A stretch of 42,655 nt of DNA from Actinomycetota bacterium. Its GTDB lineage: Bacteria; Actinomycetota; Thermoleophilia; Gaiellales; Gaiellaceae. The notes under the pieces were generated by a model. That model ran no database searches, had not been told where the DNA came from, and saw only the letters and a list, made by a program, of their open reading frames with translations. Position numbers and translations under genes: made by a program. The stretch lies in contig JBKPHO010000476.1 of assembly GCA_046729915.1 (NCBI GenBank), forward strand, positions 1 through 42,655, written 5' to 3'. This document shows, piece after piece, positions 4,807 to 11,865 of this stretch (position 1 is its first letter; each line of letters opens with the position of its first letter).

Positions 4807-6054
4807 CTAGAGAAAGGGCTCCAGCAGGGCGGGGTAGCCGTCGGCGCCGTCGAAGGGCGTCGGGCGCGAGCCGAGGAAGAGCGGCCGGTCGGCGGCGTTC
4901 AGCAGCACCGGCATCAGGTCGGGCCCGCGGAGCTGCCCGAGGATCCCGGCGGCGCAGTCGAGCTCGCCGAAGCGCTCCACGGCGTCGGCCCGCACGCCCG
5001 GGCCGGCAAGGAGCAGCGGCACCGGGTCGCCCGAGTGGATCACGTCGGGAGACGCGGGGGTGGCGTGGTCGCCGGTGACACAGACGATGGCCGTGTCGGT
5101 CGGAAGCTCGGCGAGGGCGCCGTCGAGCCGCTCGATCGTCTCCTCCTTGATCCGCGGATCCTTGGTGTGGCCGGCCGCGTCGGTTGTCTTCTGGTGGCAG
5201 AAGACGAAGGTGTCACCCGCTTCGAGCCGCTCCCGGGCGAGCTCCACGCGCGCGCCGAGGTCGGCGACGGGATCGTCGGTCTCGGGCGCCTCGAGGGGCT
5301 CGAGCCCCAACGCCCGGCCGAGCCCGCGCAGGAAGGCCGAGTCGGCCGCGAACGCACCCGTGACACCGTGCCGCTCGAGAAACGACGGAACGCGCCTGGG
5401 GCGGCCGAACCACTTGAGCGTGATCACGTTGAAGCGCTCGCCCTCGAGCCGCCTCATCGTCTCGCGCGTCCACTCCTCGCAGGCGCGGGCCGTTCGCTCC
5501 GCTTCGGGGACGAGCGGCCGCGGGCGCAGCATCGGGTGCCATGCGCGAAAGAACGCGTCGGTGTCGGTCACACGCTCGTCCGCGTCTCCGGAGATTCGCA
5601 ACACCGCCTCGCCGCGCCAGACGTGCGTCAGCGAGAATGTGAGGCCGTCCACCTCGATCCCGTCGCACCGCTGGACCAGGCGCTCCGCCTCCTCGGCGTC
5701 GCGCTGGCGGTCCGGGCGGCCGGTCAGCCACCAGCCGTCCTCGCGCCGCTCCACAGGCCGCAGCGCCGCGTAGGCGAAAACGTGCTCCTCGCTCACCTCC
5801 TGACCGCGGCCGAGAGCCTCGAAGACGGCCCGCCCCGGGAACTCGTCCGGCCGGTAGCCGAGCAGCGACCAGTGCGCGACCTCGCTCGACGGCGCACGCC
5901 CGGGGCCGACGGCGTACAGCAACCCGCACGAGCCTCGCGCCGCCAGCGTGTCGAGGTTCGGCGTGGCCGCGGCCTCGTTCCCGGTGCGCCCGCCGAGTGC
6001 TTCGTGGGCGCGGTCGCCGAGCCCGTCGAGCAGGAAGACGACGATGGGGTACAT
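4807..6054 (-). CDS. Cofactor-independent phosphoglycerate mutase-like metalloenzyme (ApgM-like, alkaline-phosphatase superfamily)
   Basis: 'MYPIVVFLLDGLGDR...', 'TTDAAGHTKDP' and 'VCVTGDHATP' resemble archaeal-type iPGM/phosphopentomutase-superfamily metal-binding motifs. Confidence 0.65.
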   Translation of the reverse strand: MYPIVVFLLDGLGDRAHEALGGRTGNEAAATPNLDTLAARGSCGLLYAVGPGRAPSSEVAHWSLLGYRPDEFPGRAVFEALGRGQEVSEEHVFAYAALRPVERREDGWWLTGRPDRQRDAEEAERLVQRCDGIEVDGLTFSLTHVWRGEAVLRISGDADERVTDTDAFFRAWHPMLRPRPLVPEAERTARACEEWTRETMRRLEGERFNVITLKWFGRPRRVPSFLERHGVTGAFAADSAFLRGLGRALGLEPLEAPETDDPVADLGARVELARERLEAGDTFVFCHQKTTDAAGHTKDPRIKEETIERLDGALAELPTDTAIVCVTGDHATPASPDVIHSGDPVPLLLAGPGVRADAVERFGELDCAAGILGQLRGPDLMPVLLNAADRPLFLGSRPTPFDGADGYPALLEPFL

Positions 6055-7029: not shown

Positions 7030-7071
7030 CCCTTACACGACCCTCGATCACCCCTTACACGGCCCTTACAC
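7030..7071 (-). repeat. Three direct repeats of GTGTAAGGG (minus-strand sense) spaced 11 and 22 bp apart
   Basis: CCCTTACAC occurs at 7030..7038, 7052..7060 and 7063..7071. The repeats lie 67-108 nt upstream of the cupredoxin-like ATG and overlap the stop codon of the upstream gene. Confidence 0.6.
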
Positions 7072-7581
7072 AGGCACGCGGTCGAGGCGCTTCAGCAGGA
7101 CCGCGACACCCGGCGGCACCATGGCCTCCCAGTCGCCCCCGGTGCGCAGGGCCTCTCGCACCTCGGCGCCCGAGACCTCCTTCTCGGCGCCCTCGTCGAG
7201 CACGACGACCTCGTAGCCGGCGGCGCGCAGGCGGTCGAGCTTCGTGCCGCCCCAGTCCGAGAAGAGGCGGATGTACTGGACGACGTCGTCGGGCACGTAG
7301 GCTGGCCAGAGCTTGGGCTCGTTGACCGGGAACGGGACGACGTGGACGCGCTCGGCCTCGATGCCGGCGTCGGCGGCGGCAGCCTTCACCATCAGCAGCC
7401 GCTCCACGTACGTGTACGGGTTCGATTCCGGAAGGTGCCGCAGCGGGTCGGAGGCTTCTGGCTTGATGCGCTCCCGGTCGGGGTTCGTGATCCCGACGAA
7501 GAGCTCCTCGCTGAGCGCCGCTGCGCCCTTCAGGTACTCGAGATGACCGTTGTGGAAGGGCTGGAACCGCCCATGGATCAT
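7066..7581 (-). CDS. Archaeal-type nicotinamide-nucleotide adenylyltransferase-like cytidylyltransferase-family protein (NadM-like)
   Basis: 'MIHGRFQPFHNGHLEYL' (HxGH nucleotidyltransferase motif), 'NPYTYVER' and 'VSGAEVREALRTGGDWEAMVPPGV' parallel archaeal NMNAT. The ATG lies 12 nt after the selD stop. The 542-aa track ORF is an artefactual upstream extension. Confidence 0.75.
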   Translation of the reverse strand: MIHGRFQPFHNGHLEYLKGAAALSEELFVGITNPDRERIKPEASDPLRHLPESNPYTYVERLLMVKAAAADAGIEAERVHVVPFPVNEPKLWPAYVPDDVVQYIRLFSDWGGTKLDRLRAAGYEVVVLDEGAEKEVSGAEVREALRTGGDWEAMVPPGVAVLLKRLDRVPV

Positions 7582-7592
7582 GCCTCGGGCGG

Positions 7593-8633
7593 TCACTCGA
7601 CGACGACGCCGGCGCCCTCCTCGACGCGGCCGACCCGCCGGATGAACAGCCTGCGCGCCTCGAACTCGGCCTCCAGCGCTGGGGCGCGCTCCGCCGGGAT
7701 CGAGACGAGCAGGCCGCCGGCCGTCTGCGGGTCGTAGCCGAGCGCCACGAATGTCTCGGGCACCGGGGGGCCGAGCTCCACGTGAGGACCGGCGAAGTCG
7801 CGGTTGCGCGGGTCGCCGCTCGTGCGCACGCCGTGCCGGGCGATATCGAGCGCCCCGTCGATGGCGGGGAAGCGGGACGACTCGAGCCGGAGCCGGACGC
7901 CGCTTCGCTCGGCGACCTCGTGGGCGTGGCCGAAGAGGCCGAAGCCGGTCACGTCGGTGACGGCGCTCGGCTCGAAGCTGCGCAGCACGCCGGCCGCGGC
8001 GTCGTTCAGCGTCCGCATCCAGCGGATCGCCCGCTCGAGCTGCTGCGAGCCGGCCCGGCCCAGTTTGTAGCCGGTCATGATCAGGCCGGTGCCGAGGGGC
8101 TTGGTCAGGAAGATCACGTCCCCGGGCCGCGCGCCGTTCTTCGGCCAGATGCCCTGCGGGTGCACCGTCCCGACGACCGCGAGGCCATATTTCGGCTCGG
8201 CATCGCGGATGGTGTGGCCGCCCGCGAGCAGCCCGCCCGCTGCACGCACCTGCGCGTCTGCAGCCGCGAAGATCTGGGCCAGCATCTCCATCGGCAGCTC
8301 CTCGGGGAAGGCAGCGATCGAGAGCGCGAGCAACGGCGTGCCGCCCATCGCGAAGACGTCGTTGAGCGCGTTCGTCGCAGCGATCGCGCCGTAGTCGGCG
8401 GGGTCGTCGACGACCGGTGGGAAGAAGTCGAGCGTGAAGATCAGCGCCCGTTCCTCGTCGAGCCGGTAGACCGCGGCGTCGTCGGCAGGCGCGAGGCCGA
8501 CGAGCAGGTCTTCCGCCTCGGCGGGCACGAAGCCCGCGAGCAACTGCTCGAGCCGTGCCGCCGAGTACTTCGCGGCGCAACCGCCGCAGGACGCCAGATC
8601 GGTGAGCTTGACGGTGCCGGTGTTTAGATCCAC
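7593..8633 (-). CDS. selD: Selenide, water dikinase (selenophosphate synthetase), Cys-type
   Basis: 'LTDLASCGGCAAKYS' is the glycine-rich N-terminal loop, with Cys three residues before the catalytic Lys. PurM/AIR-synthase-like fold motifs ('DDAAVY', 'TLDFFPP', 'ATNALNDVFAMGG', 'GGHTI') are present. There is no in-frame TGA. Confidence 0.9.
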   Translation of the reverse strand: MDLNTGTVKLTDLASCGGCAAKYSAARLEQLLAGFVPAEAEDLLVGLAPADDAAVYRLDEERALIFTLDFFPPVVDDPADYGAIAATNALNDVFAMGGTPLLALSIAAFPEELPMEMLAQIFAAADAQVRAAGGLLAGGHTIRDAEPKYGLAVVGTVHPQGIWPKNGARPGDVIFLTKPLGTGLIMTGYKLGRAGSQQLERAIRWMRTLNDAAAGVLRSFEPSAVTDVTGFGLFGHAHEVAERSGVRLRLESSRFPAIDGALDIARHGVRTSGDPRNRDFAGPHVELGPPVPETFVALGYDPQTAGGLLVSIPAERAPALEAEFEARRLFIRRVGRVEEGAGVVVE

Positions 8634-8825
8634 AGCGGCTTCCCCCCCGCAATTGGTCTCGGGAACTGTAGGGGTGGTTCGGGCTTTCGTCCATCTACGA
8701 CGAGGGCCCTGCCCGTATTCCCGTTGGAGGCGCGCGACGGCGGCCGGAGCCGCCGTCGCTTGGGGAGAGGAGGAGCTTTGGTGCGCCTCCCCGTTCGTGC
8801 CGATCGGCTCGATTCCTGCCGCCGG

Positions 8826-9713
8826 TCAGAGCAGCTTTGCGCGCACGGCAGCACCGAGCTCGCTCGCCGAGACCGAGCCTTCGAACTTCGCCTTGATCCG
8901 GCCGTCGCGCCCGACGAGGAACACCCACGGCTCGGTGCGAAGGCCCCACTGGCGCATCCAGCGGTTGTAGCCGCGCTGCGGGTTGTTGTCGCGGAAGACC
9001 TCGACGTGGATGAACCGGACGCCCCGCGGCGCGAAGCGCTTCCGGACCGCCTCCATCACGTCCACGACCGGCCCGCACGTGCGGCTGGTGCAGAACTTCG
9101 GCGTCGCGAACGTGACCACGAACGGCTTGTGCGCGGCCAACGAGCCCGCGATCGAATAGCGCAGCAGCGGCAGGTCGGGCGGCCGGCTCGTGGTGATGCG
9201 CGCCGCCGCCGCCGTGGCGAGCGTCGGCGTCGCCGAGCGTGGAGCCCTGGCGCCGACGGCCCGGCTACTGGCGTGCGCGGTCACGTCCAGCACGCCGACC
9301 GCCTGGATCCTGGCGCCTGCCGGCTGCGCGACGAGCCAGTAGCGGCCGGGCCGCCGAAGTTTGAGCTGCGCGACGAAGATGCGGGTCACGCCGCCGAAGG
9401 CCGCCTCGGAGCGACCGGGAATCCCGATCGGCTCGAGGCGCGCGGTCGCGCGAGCGAACGGGGTGCCCGCCCGGCTCTTGGCGACCCAGACGGAAGCCGT
9501 GGGCCGGTACACCGGCCTCGCGTCGTTTCTGATCACGAGGAACGGGTACCGAACGTCGCCGGCCACGAACTCGGAAGCACCCGCCGTGACGGCGACGTCC
9601 GGCCCGGGCCGCTTCAGGATCGATTCCAGCGTGGCGCCCCTTGACGTGGCGGACCCGCCGCAACCGGCGCAGAGAGCCGATGCCGCGAGGAGAACGGCGA
9701 AAACCCGGCCCAC
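8826..9713 (-). CDS. Lipoprotein with a C-terminal thioredoxin-fold (redoxin/SCO-like) domain
   Basis: Lipobox 'LAASALCAGCGG'. C-terminal 'FVVTFATPKFCTSRTCGPVVD...WVFLVGRDGRIKAKFEG' resembles thiol-disulfide oxidoreductase folds. Confidence 0.7.
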   Translation of the reverse strand: MGRVFAVLLAASALCAGCGGSATSRGATLESILKRPGPDVAVTAGASEFVAGDVRYPFLVIRNDARPVYRPTASVWVAKSRAGTPFARATARLEPIGIPGRSEAAFGGVTRIFVAQLKLRRPGRYWLVAQPAGARIQAVGVLDVTAHASSRAVGARAPRSATPTLATAAAARITTSRPPDLPLLRYSIAGSLAAHKPFVVTFATPKFCTSRTCGPVVDVMEAVRKRFAPRGVRFIHVEVFRDNNPQRGYNRWMRQWGLRTEPWVFLVGRDGRIKAKFEGSVSASELGAAVRAKLL

Positions 9714-9804: not shown

Positions 9805-9831
9805 GCGTTCGGAGCCCCCCGCTCCGAACGC
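9805..9831 (-). terminator. 11-bp perfect hairpin 13 nt downstream of the 41-codon ORF
   Basis: GCGTTCGGAGC-ccccc-GCTCCGAACGC. There is no U-tract, as is common for high-GC actinobacterial terminators. A mutually exclusive alternative stem CCGAAC/GTTCGG (9824..9842) also exists. Confidence 0.6.
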
Positions 9832-9843
9832 GCCTGGTTCGGT

Positions 9844-9969
9844 CTAGTGCCCGTCGAACCAGCTGCCCGGATGGCCGAGGAGGCATCCGAGGCCGTGCGC
9901 GGCGCCCTGGAGGGAGAAGGCCAGCAGGGAGAGGGAGACCGTCAGCGAGATCAGGCGTGCCTTGTTCAT
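9844..9969 (-). CDS. Unannotated 41-aa small ORF: secreted pro-peptide candidate MNKARLISLTVSLSLLAFSLQGAAHGLGCLLGHPGSWFDGH
   Basis: Hand translation of the minus strand. SD GAAGGAGGTG lies 4 nt before the ATG. About 38 of 40 codons end in G/C, matching genome coding bias. N-terminus is signal-like (n-region MNKAR, a 15-aa hydrophobic core, then an AxA-like GAAHG). It starts 19 nt after the regulator stop and is followed by a hairpin. It falls below the 60-aa cutoff of the supplied track. Confidence 0.7.
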   Translation of the reverse strand: MNKARLISLTVSLSLLAFSLQGAAHGLGCLLGHPGSWFDGH

Positions 9970-9988
9970 CGTCACCTCCTTCGTCGGC

Positions 9989-11338
9989 TTAGAAGCGGAC
10001 ATCCTGTAGGGCTTCGGCAGCCTTTCGATACAGGCGTGCCGCAGTAGCGTCCTCGCCGCGGCGGGCGGCGAGATCGCCTTGTGCCATCCACGCGGCGGCG
10101 CGATGGCTGATCGATTCCAGCTGCTCTGCGCTTGCCTCGGCGGTGCGCAGCATCTGCTGCGCCTCGTCGAGGCGACCCTGCTCCATCAAGGCGCGGCCCA
10201 GCACGAGCTGGGTCGGCGCGATGTCGAGCAGGAAGTCTTCGCGGCCCTCGAGGAGCTCGAGCGCGTGACGCGCCTCCTCTTCTGCCGACTCCACCTGGCC
10301 GGTCGCCAGGTGCACGTGTGCGAGAGACGAGACCACGTTGGCGGCCTCGGCGTCGCTGCCCTTGTCGAGCAGGACGCGGTAGGCGTTCTTCAGGTCCTCG
10401 ACCGCCCGCTCGGGCTTGCCGAGCTGGAAGTTGAGGCCACCCAGGTTGTTCAAAAGCCGGCCGACGTTTCGCTCGTCGTTCAGCTGCTCGTAGTAGGCCT
10501 TGGCGCGCTCGGCGTAACTGCGCGCGAGAACCCAGTGGCCCATTCGCTCGGAGACGAGCGAGGCCTGGAAGTAGACATTGGCCATCGTCCGGTGGTCGTC
10601 GAGCGCCTGCGCCAGCTCGAGCGCCCGCTCGACGTCCTCCCGCGCGGCCTCGAAGTCGCGCTGGCGGCGGTAGCAGCGCGAGCGCCAGCCGAGGATCTCG
10701 GAGCGCAGCAGGTCGCATGGAAGACCCGAGCCCTCCGCGAGCTTCAGCGCCTCGCTGAAGAGCGCGACAGCCGAGGCGATGCTGGAGAGGTGGTAACGGC
10801 AGACGCCCATGCGGAAGAGCACCTGCGCGCGGTCGACGTCCGAGAAGCCGGGGCCCTCGGTGATCGTGCGGCAGCGCTCCAGGAGCCGTAGGGCCGGCCG
10901 GAGCTCGCCGCGCTCCATCCGCGCCCACGCTTCCGTCTGGACCGCGCGGGCCTCGAGCTCGACCGCGCCGGTGGCCATCACGGCCGTGTGCGCGTTCTCA
11001 AGCTCCTCGATGGCTTCGTCGTACTGGTGCGCGTTGGCAAGGGCCTCCGCCCGGGCGAGCATGGCCTCGACTCTGCTGCGCTCGTCGGCGGAGACGCCGC
11101 GCTCGAGGAAGGCGGCGTCGACGCCGAGCTTGGCCGCCAGCCACTCGATCGTCTCGCGCGTGGGCCTGGTCTTCCCACGCTCGATCTGGCTGACGTACTC
11201 CTTCGAGAAGCGGTCGCCCGCGAGATCAGTCTGCGTCAGGCCTGCGGCGACGCGCAGCTGCCGGACCCGCTCGCCGAGGCGGGCGGATCCGAGGCGGCTG
11301 GTGGTGCGGGACTGGGCTGTTAGGGAGTCTTTGGGCAC
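9989..11338 (-). CDS. XRE-family HTH transcriptional regulator with a large TPR domain (PlcR/NprR-like architecture)
   Basis: N-terminal 'LGERVRQLRVAAGLTQTDLAGDRFSKEYVSQIERGKTRPTRETIEWLAAKLGV' is an HTH_XRE. The remaining ~370 aa consist of repeated 34-residue A/L/Y-rich helical pairs (e.g. 'ANVYFQASLVSERMGHWVLARSYAERAKAYYEQL', 'GRLLNNLGGLNFQLGKPERAVEDLKNAYRVL'). Confidence 0.85.
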   Translation of the reverse strand: MPKDSLTAQSRTTSRLGSARLGERVRQLRVAAGLTQTDLAGDRFSKEYVSQIERGKTRPTRETIEWLAAKLGVDAAFLERGVSADERSRVEAMLARAEALANAHQYDEAIEELENAHTAVMATGAVELEARAVQTEAWARMERGELRPALRLLERCRTITEGPGFSDVDRAQVLFRMGVCRYHLSSIASAVALFSEALKLAEGSGLPCDLLRSEILGWRSRCYRRQRDFEAAREDVERALELAQALDDHRTMANVYFQASLVSERMGHWVLARSYAERAKAYYEQLNDERNVGRLLNNLGGLNFQLGKPERAVEDLKNAYRVLLDKGSDAEAANVVSSLAHVHLATGQVESAEEEARHALELLEGREDFLLDIAPTQLVLGRALMEQGRLDEAQQMLRTAEASAEQLESISHRAAAWMAQGDLAARRGEDATAARLYRKAAEALQDVRF

Positions 11339-11351
11339 GAAACGCTCGCGG

Positions 11352-11377
11352 CGAAGTCAAACGCATACTTGACTTCG
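11352..11377. promoter_or_regulatory. Perfect 9-N8-9 palindrome CGAAGTCAA-acgcatac-TTGACTTCG, a candidate operator upstream of the XRE-TPR gene
   Basis: Read directly from the sequence. It lies 14-39 nt upstream of the regulator GTG (11338). The ACTTGAC half-site recurs at 11458..11464 and 11471..11477. Confidence 0.6.
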
Positions 11378-11472
11378 GCGCAAGTGCGGTTGGGCTATAT
11401 CCCCCAAAAAGGGCATGTCCGAGCCGCAAACAGGGTGAACTGGCCGGTCTGAAAATCACTTGACCGAGTTAC

Positions 11473-11501
11473 TTGACTCCCGCTTTGGCCACGTCTATAT
11501 T
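11473..11501 (+). promoter_or_regulatory. Near-consensus sigma-70-type promoter (TTGACT-17 nt-TATATT)
   Basis: -35 TTGACT at 11473..11478, an exact 17-nt spacer, and -10 TATATT at 11496..11501. This stands out in a very GC-rich genome. Expected TSS is near 11508. Confidence 0.65.
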
Positions 11502-11507
11502 GCGACC

Positions 11508-11684
11508 ACCTTGCACCCAGCCGGACGCCAGGCTTACGGGATGCAAGGGGCGCGCCAGAGACGGCGACACATGGCCCGGAGGTAGTGGCTGGGCCGCAGA
11601 GCCAAGGCCTCCGGGTCGTCGCCTCTCAGGAAAGGCCCGCAAAAATCACAAAGCCCCCCGAGCCGCAGCGGGGGGCTTTTCTCT
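11508..11684 (+). ncRNA. Candidate ~175-nt structured small RNA of unknown class
   Basis: Bounded by the promoter above and an intrinsic terminator. Internal helices: CCTTGCA/TGCAAGG; GGCGAC...CCCGGAGG...CCTCCGGG..GTCGCC with an inner GGCT/AGCC; then an A-rich single-stranded stretch. No plausible ORF and no downstream plus-strand gene. Confidence 0.5.
11651..11684. terminator. Rho-independent terminator, potentially bidirectional
   Basis: AAGCCCCCCG-agccgcag-CGGGGGGCTT followed by TTCTCT on the plus strand. It is preceded by GCAAAAATCACAAAG, which gives a T-rich tail on the minus strand. A second hairpin CCGGGGGAA-tccctgg-TTCCCCCGG follows at 11687..11711. Confidence 0.7.
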
Positions 11685-11865
11685 GTCCGGGGGAATCCCT
11701 GGTTCCCCCGGATGACCCCTCCTTGCCAGCGGCCCTGCAGCCCTTGCGTCCAGGAGCCGGCGCTTGGATCCGAGACTTCGTTCGTTCTTGTCGTTGTGTG
11801 CCTCCCGCCGAGCAAAGCTCGGCTCCGGCGGCCGGCCTGGGCGCCCCAAGTTGACGTTGGCTCTG

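Follow-up and report, generated by a model that had tools for sequence, protein, structure and literature searches.

In the arbitrium system of Bacillus phages (AimR-AimP-AimX), a receptor with a helix-turn-helix (HTH) domain and tetratricopeptide repeats (TPRs) is paired with a pro-peptide of ~40 amino acids (aa). The C-terminal hexapeptide of this pro-peptide is the signal and an adjacent non-coding RNA is the output. Here we consider a two-gene locus in a 42,655-nt stretch of DNA from a member of the Gaiellaceae (assembly GCA_046729915.1, contig JBKPHO010000476.1, positions 1 to 42,655 of the forward strand; this whole stretch is the window below). It consists of a gene for a 449-aa HTH and TPR regulator, close in size to NprR, and a small open reading frame (sORF) of 41 aa directly downstream of it. 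Cytoplasmic-receptor peptide quorum sensing of the RRNPP/RRNPPA kind is described as a trait of the Bacillota, and Actinomycetota are said to rely typically on small-molecule signals (PMC10075063). The signature of an RRNPP system is a pro-peptide of 10-100 aa, a Sec/signal peptidase I (SPI) signal on it as called by SignalP, a receptor of 250-500 aa, TPRs in that receptor and direct neighbourhood of the two genes at -60 to 400 bp (PMC10075063). Tandemly duplicated pheromone pro-peptides have been described for RRNPPA systems (PMC11343458, PMC9765709). In the literature searched, no such cassette is reported from the Actinomycetota, the Gaiellales included.

Four of the five items in the signature are found at this locus, namely a peptide of 41 aa, a receptor of 449 aa, TPRs and a gap of 19 nt, and the receptor bears an N-terminal HTH besides. 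We argue that the sORF is probably the pro-peptide gene of a signalling cassette made up of two genes, one for a receptor and one for its peptide. Export, trimming, re-uptake and TPR binding would follow from this reading, in which we have moderate confidence. The best reading of the cassette as a whole is that it works like an RRNPP system. We do not assign it to the RRNPPA family of proteins because specific homology to RRNPP receptors could not be demonstrated.

A small gene paired with the regulator

The sORF lies on the minus strand at 9844-9969. Its ATG is at 9969-9967 and is followed by 40 further sense codons and a TAG at 9846-9844, exactly as the initial annotation had it. The product is MNKARLISLTVSLSLLAFSLQGAAHGLGCLLGHPGSWFDGH. 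A Shine-Dalgarno sequence, GAAGGAGGTG (9973-9982, minus), stands 3 nt (acg) ahead of the ATG and falls within the 19-nt gap that follows the regulator stop. A mechanical list of open reading frames (ORFs) gives a 52-aa form that begins at an upstream ATG (9844-10002). We reject this start, which is without a Shine-Dalgarno sequence and whose extension is missing from distant loci. The extension overlaps the 3' end of the regulator gene and the ribosome-binding site (its KEV is AAGGAGGTG).

In 8 kb of this 71% GC DNA one counts 76 ORFs of 30 aa or more. An ORF as long as the sORF is unremarkable here, so the verdict on the gene rests on comparative data. GC at codon positions 1/2/3 is 0.66/0.49/0.93 in the sORF and 0.64-0.78 / 0.44-0.59 / 0.89-0.95 in the real neighbouring genes. 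Spurious ORFs in DNA of this composition differ (e.g. 0.52/0.77/0.93), so the sORF carries the signature of a real gene. G or C ends 38 of its 41 sense codons, which is 37 of 40 after the ATG. About 38 of 40 had been claimed, along with a likeness to the neighbours, and the claim holds with this small correction.

Among 5.8 billion proteins, a word-indexed search recovered homologues in 59 clusters; their E-values run from 7e-19 to 7e-6 and their lengths from 40 to 55 aa. They come from soil metagenomes and from Gaiellaceae metagenome-assembled genomes (MAGs). Where these proteins have a name, JGI and NCBI already call them 'hypothetical protein'. An exhaustive profile search of 1.84 billion representatives gave 21 matches that belong to the same small-peptide family apart from P0184, a repetitive protein of 548 aa that we reject as a chance or low-complexity match. 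Neither the sORF nor eight diverse relatives matched any family in Pfam or NCBIfam. A codon alignment of 24 distinct close-clade sequences gives a pooled ratio of nonsynonymous to synonymous polymorphism (pN/pS) of 0.33. Invariant residues in this alignment use several synonymous codons (Leu8 3, Ser16 7, Gly28 4).

The distribution of the regulator was examined with one genome per species. More than 568 genomes have it, and the best 80 loci were kept. Regulators in these loci are 62-96% identical to that of the window, and the far edge of the family lies beyond this set. Record titles put the relatives in the Gaiellaceae/Gaiellales (Thermoleophilia, Actinomycetota). An intact sORF of 28-71 aa is found behind AAGGAGGTG downstream of the regulator in 78 of the 80 species-level loci, and this motif or a near variant precedes the sORF in nearly all of them. 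The distance from the regulator stop to the sORF start is 8-43 nt in relatives and mostly 13-21; in the window it is 19 nt, with both genes on the same strand. There are two exceptions. The contig of L044 ends inside the regulator gene, and L085 has an apparent 1-nt frameshift. The gene downstream of the sORF differs by locus, being a thioredoxin (Trx)-like lipoprotein, UbiB or an AIRS protein. The downstream gene is not constant, so the invariant unit is the regulator plus the sORF. Their pairing, their spacing and the ribosome-binding site are conserved family-wide.

The 59 homologous clusters, the pN/pS and the 78 intact syntenic copies make the sORF a genuine protein-coding gene under purifying selection. 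The initial annotation had called it one, and had proposed an alignment of relatives that would look for a synonymous pattern and for indels or stops that break the frame. The low pN/pS and the turnover of synonymous codons at invariant residues are such a pattern, and a single 1-nt frameshift, that of L085, stands beside the intact copies. We propose that the receptor/pro-peptide pair is a core, vertically inherited feature of the Gaiellaceae.

Some copies of the sORF are irregular. In L085 (~5290-5400) the 1-nt indel throws LGYADGAW and its stop codon out of frame. Three of the 21 profile matches (P0189, P0198 and P0199) are truncated or frameshifted variants. These four copies are assembly errors (long-read MAGs) or rare pseudogenes. 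In L070, L075, L077, L078 and L088, whose tail is GFFDNW.., there is no ATG, GTG or TTG at the normal spacing after GGAGG. A GTG occurs there only as the final three bases of the box AGGAGGTG/AGGGGGTG itself. The frame may begin at ATC/ATT or CTG in these five loci, and their start codon is uncertain.

The peptide as a candidate ligand of the regulator

The window peptide begins with a basic n-region (MNKAR, +2), followed by a 15-residue hydrophobic h-region (LISLTVSLSLLAFSL) and the c-region QGAAHG. A variable linker leads to the tail PGSWFDGH. Features were compared across 79 peptides. In all versions the n-region is basic, with a net charge of +1 to +4; the hydrophobic core, for which the median is 15 residues, leads into a variable linker. 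Judged from sequence, the core is signal-peptide-like and short for a membrane span, and several clades have hydrophobic stretches of 19-24 residues. The putative cleavage context is AxG in the window clade (AAHG↓L) and FARG↓L in most relatives. In L036-L043 the site is a canonical one for signal peptidase (..PGLAQA↓K). The Sec/SPI item of the RRNPP signature was judged by these features, that is by the charge, the median-15 core, the AxG of the window clade and the AQA↓K of L036-L043. The basic n-region, 15-residue core and QGAAHG c-region that the initial annotation described are all present, and its prediction of signal-peptide anatomy appears sound when the relatives are included.

The tail motif is conserved across the family, in clade-specific forms. 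A C-terminal x-[WFMAYH]-x-[DE]-[GN] is found at or near the end of 77 of the 79 peptides. It is SWFDGH in the window clade and SWSDGH, GFFDGH, SWWDG[GP], GFSDGPL, GFADGPR, GHFDGH or GFFDNW.. in other clades. The pro-peptides of L036-L043 are longer, at 53-71 aa. Their signal-peptidase site is followed by a basic linker and then by 2-5 tandem S[A/M]FDG[G/H] units, some with SNTS or SNIS as spacers. By their sequence these units indicate an intragenic duplication of the putative signal unit. The repeats imply that the functional unit is about a hexapeptide, equivalent to SWFDGH in the window.

The regulator gene (9989-11338, minus) encodes the candidate cytoplasmic receptor, as judged by Pfam, an AlphaFold2 model and its orthologues. 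These orthologues are 446-457 aa long and occur in more than 568 species genomes. An HTH_XRE domain occupies about residues 20-80 at the N-terminus (HTH_31, 7e-13), and behind it comes a TPR superhelix with about 22 helices. Pfam also matches TPR_12 (1.6e-26), TPR_2 (2.4e-24) and TPR_MalT (5e-11). The AlphaFold2 model (pLDDT, the predicted local distance difference test, of 86) is all-helical, with the HTH followed by about 20 helices in TPR-like pairs. A Foldseek comparison of the model with the PDB is led by generic peptide-binding TPR superhelices (LGN/Pins, 2e-9). PlcR-PapR-DNA (3u3w) is at rank 35 with 1e-6 and a template modelling (TM) score of 0.27-0.40, and Rap proteins are at ranks 39-50. 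A profile search of PDB sequences puts Pins first (3.4e-9) and gives 2.6e-3 for RapJ; PlcR (5e-4) and ComR (1.4e-4) are matched through the HTH only. Two PDB profile searches and Foldseek thus found no specific homology to Rap, Rgg, NprR, PlcR, PrgX or AimR. NCBIfam has a weak match to HaaT (E 6.8e-10, 38 bits against a cut-off of 1125). There are no relatives of the regulator in the phage collection, and the plasmid matches, from Streptomyces and Bacillus, are only 26-30% identical. The regulator is probably an independent assembly of HTH_XRE and canonical TPRs with the domain architecture of RRNPP receptors.

It is worth considering how the two genes have diverged. The HTH is the most conserved part of the regulator, with 76-98% identity. 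In L073, L087 and L008 it is 95-97% identical to that of the window. The TPR domains of these three loci are only 62-64% identical to that of the window and fall in a group of their own (nearest other clade 69-70%). Their tails are SSWYEG in L073, SSWVEW in L087 and SWFEGR in L008 instead of SWFDGH. The flanks of L073 and L087 are as close to the window as those of the nearest relatives, with the acetyl-CoA synthetase (ACS) 89% and the AIRS protein 89% identical. L008 is a short contig; its major facilitator superfamily (MFS) gene is 84% and its Trx-like lipoprotein 73% identical. The TPR domain and the tail have changed jointly in an otherwise constant background, which is the pattern expected of a receptor and its ligand. 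A possible explanation of these mosaic regulators is the replacement of one 'pherotype' by another, through recombination or rapid divergence.

We argue that a signalling pro-peptide, which was among the suggestions of the initial annotation, is the best-supported reading of the sORF. It draws on the obligate pairing with an HTH and TPR regulator, the hexapeptide-sized C-terminal motif, the tandem copies and the co-divergence of TPR domain and tail. The most straightforward scenario would be as follows. The regulator gene and the sORF would be co-transcribed, and the sORF, 19 nt past the regulator stop, would be translated from its own strong Shine-Dalgarno sequence. The 41-aa product would be exported via Sec and cleaved behind its ..AxG, at AAHG↓L in the window peptide and at FARG↓L in that of most relatives. 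The released peptide would be trimmed to its ~6-8 C-terminal residues, SWFDGH or PGSWFDGH. At high density it would be re-imported and bind the concave face of the regulator's TPR domain. Binding would then alter the action of the regulator at GTCAAGT-type sites, both those upstream of its own gene and those at the divergent promoter of a candidate small RNA (sRNA).

Several points weigh against this scenario. In the close clade, conservation is as high in the hydrophobic N-terminal region as in the tail. Many Firmicute systems have hypervariable 'codes', but the D-G core of this tail hardly varies across the family, and the cause could be a constraint from processing or structure. The 3' part of the regulator gene, which encodes the TPRs, lies next to the sORF, and one recombination tract could therefore swap both without any functional coupling. 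The searches do not place the regulator nearer to RRNPP receptors than to TPR proteins of a generic kind. Finally, no oligopeptide permease (Opp) gene is present within the window, to which that search was confined.

One can imagine instead that the product stays in the membrane as a single-pass protein (N-in, C-out) that modulates an envelope process, or tethers or sequesters a partner, with no diffusible signal. This would account for the near invariance of LISL..SLSLLAF within the close clade, for an AxG in place of the classical AxA site in the window clade and for the clades with hydrophobic stretches of 19-24 residues. However, the median h-region of 15 residues is short for a span, and an anchor makes little sense of the AQA↓K site and repeated hexapeptides in L036-L043. 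An N-in topology also puts the tail outside the cell, yet the TPR regulator that varies with it is cytoplasmic. The small membrane protein offered as a possibility in the initial annotation is therefore disfavoured, by the short core and by the cleavage site of one clade, and we consider it unlikely.

Another scenario is a secreted peptide with an extracellular job, whether antimicrobial, metal-binding or surface-active, that the regulator controls but does not sense. The signal-peptide anatomy is equally expected of such a peptide, and co-transcription with a regulator is typical of regulated outputs too. Some clades have His/Gly-rich linkers, such as GHGHDHGGGG in L030. Metal binding by three His and one Cys had in fact been suggested for the window peptide, and this does not survive the comparison with relatives. 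In place of Cys29 the relatives have G, F, W, H, S, Q or a gap; Arg, Gln and other residues share position 25 with His, and 8 different residues occur at position 33. Of the four, the terminal His41 alone is conserved, and that within the close clade only. A bacterial lipoprotein was rejected as well, there being no conserved lipobox; Cys29 is variable, and lipobox-like strings such as LGAC in L082 are sporadic. More generally, the sole family-wide element is a motif of 5-6 residues, which is too small for most effector functions, and the tail has changed along with the TPR domain against a constant HTH and constant flanking genes. We find a secreted effector improbable.

The sORF could also be the precursor of a ribosomally synthesized and post-translationally modified peptide (RiPP), with the aromatic-x-D-G motif as a core peptide modified by enzymes encoded elsewhere. 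Repeated short aromatic motifs do resemble multi-core RiPP precursors, and HaaT, the weak match of the regulator, is the TPR protein of a cyclophane RiPP. That match falls far short of its cut-off and reflects the likeness of TPRs in general. Beside the pair there is no conserved gene for a radical-SAM enzyme, a cyclase, a protease or a dedicated transporter, and the neighbours that do occur (MFS transporter, TetR, Trx-like lipoprotein, UbiB, AIRS protein) vary between loci. A Sec signal peptide would also be unusual for a RiPP leader, and we regard this origin as very improbable. A chance ORF is an idea that the common occurrence of such lengths in 71% GC DNA and the lack of a Pfam or NCBIfam match might encourage, but it is already refuted by the homologous clusters, by the pN/pS and by a Shine-Dalgarno sequence, frame and tail that are kept across regulators only 62% identical.

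The upstream region and the neighbourhood

About 330 bp upstream of the regulator gene are conserved at the nucleotide level family-wide. Just before the regulator start codon there is an inverted repeat, GAAGTCAA-N8-TTGACTTC (11345-11384, core GTSAAG..TTSAC), which is a candidate autoregulatory operator. Of 78 loci, 43 have GT[CG]AA-N8-TT[CG]AC in this position, compared with 0.00 expected by shuffling. A near-consensus promoter, TTGACT-17-TATATT (11473-11501, plus), points away from the regulator gene. In ~69 of 84 loci it is found at the same place as TTGAC[TGA]-N16-18-TATAGT with a variable spacer. Its -35 box is overlapped and flanked by a direct repeat, GTCAAGT-N6-GTCAAGT (11458-11477, minus), which is a candidate binding site of the regulator. 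All 78 loci have GTCAAGT-N6-RTCAAGT at the -35 box, again against 0.00 expected by shuffling. A promoter of the regulator gene itself was sought and not identified.

The divergent promoter precedes a candidate sRNA of ~180 nt (11508-11690, plus; ends predicted) that is conserved and structured and ends in a hairpin (11650-11679) and a T-run. When 37 loci are aligned, the structure pairs 98.1% of cells, with compensatory changes in 15 of 30 pairs. None of 500 shuffles reaches these values, and slid controls pair 34-62% of cells. The frequency of G-U pairs points to the plus strand as the transcribed one. There is no Rfam match in the window at the gathering threshold, and the matches in 11330-11760 are at chance level only. 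This sRNA is a possible regulatory target of the cassette, its control by the regulator being a hypothesis.

A perfect 11-bp stem with a 5-nt loop (GCGTTCGGAGC-GGGGG-GCTCCGAACGC; 9805-9831, minus) begins 12 nt after the sORF stop. It is likely, from its sequence and place, the terminator that closes a regulator-sORF operon. Hairpins of other sequence follow the sORF stop in L070, L075, L077, L083, L085 and L088. On the other side, the terminator-like hairpin at 11650-11679 parts the unit from an upstream MFS-TetR pair. The unit is thus bounded by hairpins at both ends, which we count in favour of a signalling cassette.

The wider neighbourhood is housekeeping in character (acetyl-CoA synthetase, NAD synthase, an AIRS-family protein, cupredoxin, phosphoglycerate mutase, CtaA, PAC2) and is syntenic in relatives. 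A 295-aa lipoprotein (8826-9713, minus; signal LLAASALCAGC) often but not always adjoins the sORF. It has a weak thioredoxin-like C-terminal domain with a C-x4-C motif (FCTSRTCGP). An AIRS-family (SelD-like) gene and a cytidylyltransferase-like gene abut (7066-8694, minus, and 7593-8633, minus). In L002 the two are called as one 542-aa fusion, probably through a frameshift in that assembly.

A bolder version of the signalling reading can be put forward tentatively, and we doubt it more than we believe it. The locus may be a peptide quorum-sensing circuit of the Gaiellaceae core genome, independent of Firmicute RRNPP systems. It would have an x-aromatic-x-D-G hexapeptide pheromone released from a Sec-exported pro-peptide, a receptor with an HTH and canonical TPRs to sense it, the previously undescribed sRNA as its direct output in an arbitrium-like logic, and pherotypes that arise by joint replacement of TPR domain and tail. 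If this is true, receptor-peptide-sRNA logic occurs in a free-living actinobacterium from an abundant and almost uncultured soil family. A receptor/pro-peptide cassette shared across the Gaiellaceae would, for its part, carry cytoplasmic-receptor peptide signalling into another phylum, probably by convergence. It would also provide SWFDGH and its clade variants as concrete candidate signals that can be synthesised, and cell-cell communication would become testable in a dominant and poorly understood soil lineage. If the signalling reading is true, a widespread small protein so far called 'hypothetical' gains a function; the locus also points to a new conserved sRNA.

Comparison with known signalling systems

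The closest parallels are PlcR-PapR and NprR-NprX of the Bacillota. Each has a receptor with HTH_XRE and C-terminal TPRs, and a small ORF directly downstream of it. The peptide here has, by its sequence features, a putative Sec-type signal and, as in those systems, a short conserved C-terminal part that is presumably the active one. Tandem peptide copies in some alleles, and a ligand-binding domain that diverges together with its peptide, are shared with RRNPP/RRNPPA systems in general. There are also clear differences. The host is a member of the Actinomycetota (Thermoleophilia) rather than the Bacillota. The receptor has canonical TPR_12-type repeats, and its similarity to PlcR, Rap or ComR does not exceed that to eukaryotic LGN/Pins or kinesin light chain. 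The cassette sits on the chromosome as a single-copy core locus of conserved synteny and is neither accessory nor mobile, and its D-G dipeptide is nearly invariant across all variants.

The likeness to arbitrium lies in the conserved, structured candidate sRNA with a strong promoter that adjoins the regulator gene, and in the GTCAAGT repeats at the -35 box of that promoter. Unlike arbitrium, this locus is chromosomal with no phage relatives found, and its sRNA is upstream and divergent instead of downstream. The 2-5 hexapeptide copies behind the signal peptide in L036-L043 are like the multi-peptide pro-peptides of the Rap-Phr type (PMC11343458, PMC9765709). Rap receptors, however, are without an HTH and act as phosphatases or anti-activators, whereas the receptor here is a predicted DNA-binding protein.

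A last comparison is with the HTH and TPR regulators of Streptomyces plasmids, which have full-length similarity to the regulator (26% identity over 95% of the query). On the S. goshikiensis plasmid NZ_CP115937.1 (L091, 4092-4599) two ORFs of ~70 aa come after such a regulator, and one of them has a clear signal peptide (..TPAALA↓HTP..). The gap there measures 167 nt, unlike the 19 nt of the window, the similarity is very remote, and the peptides are without the x-aromatic-x-D-G tail. Even so, the arrangement of a regulator and a small secreted peptide may, to judge from these sequences, be wider in the Actinomycetota.

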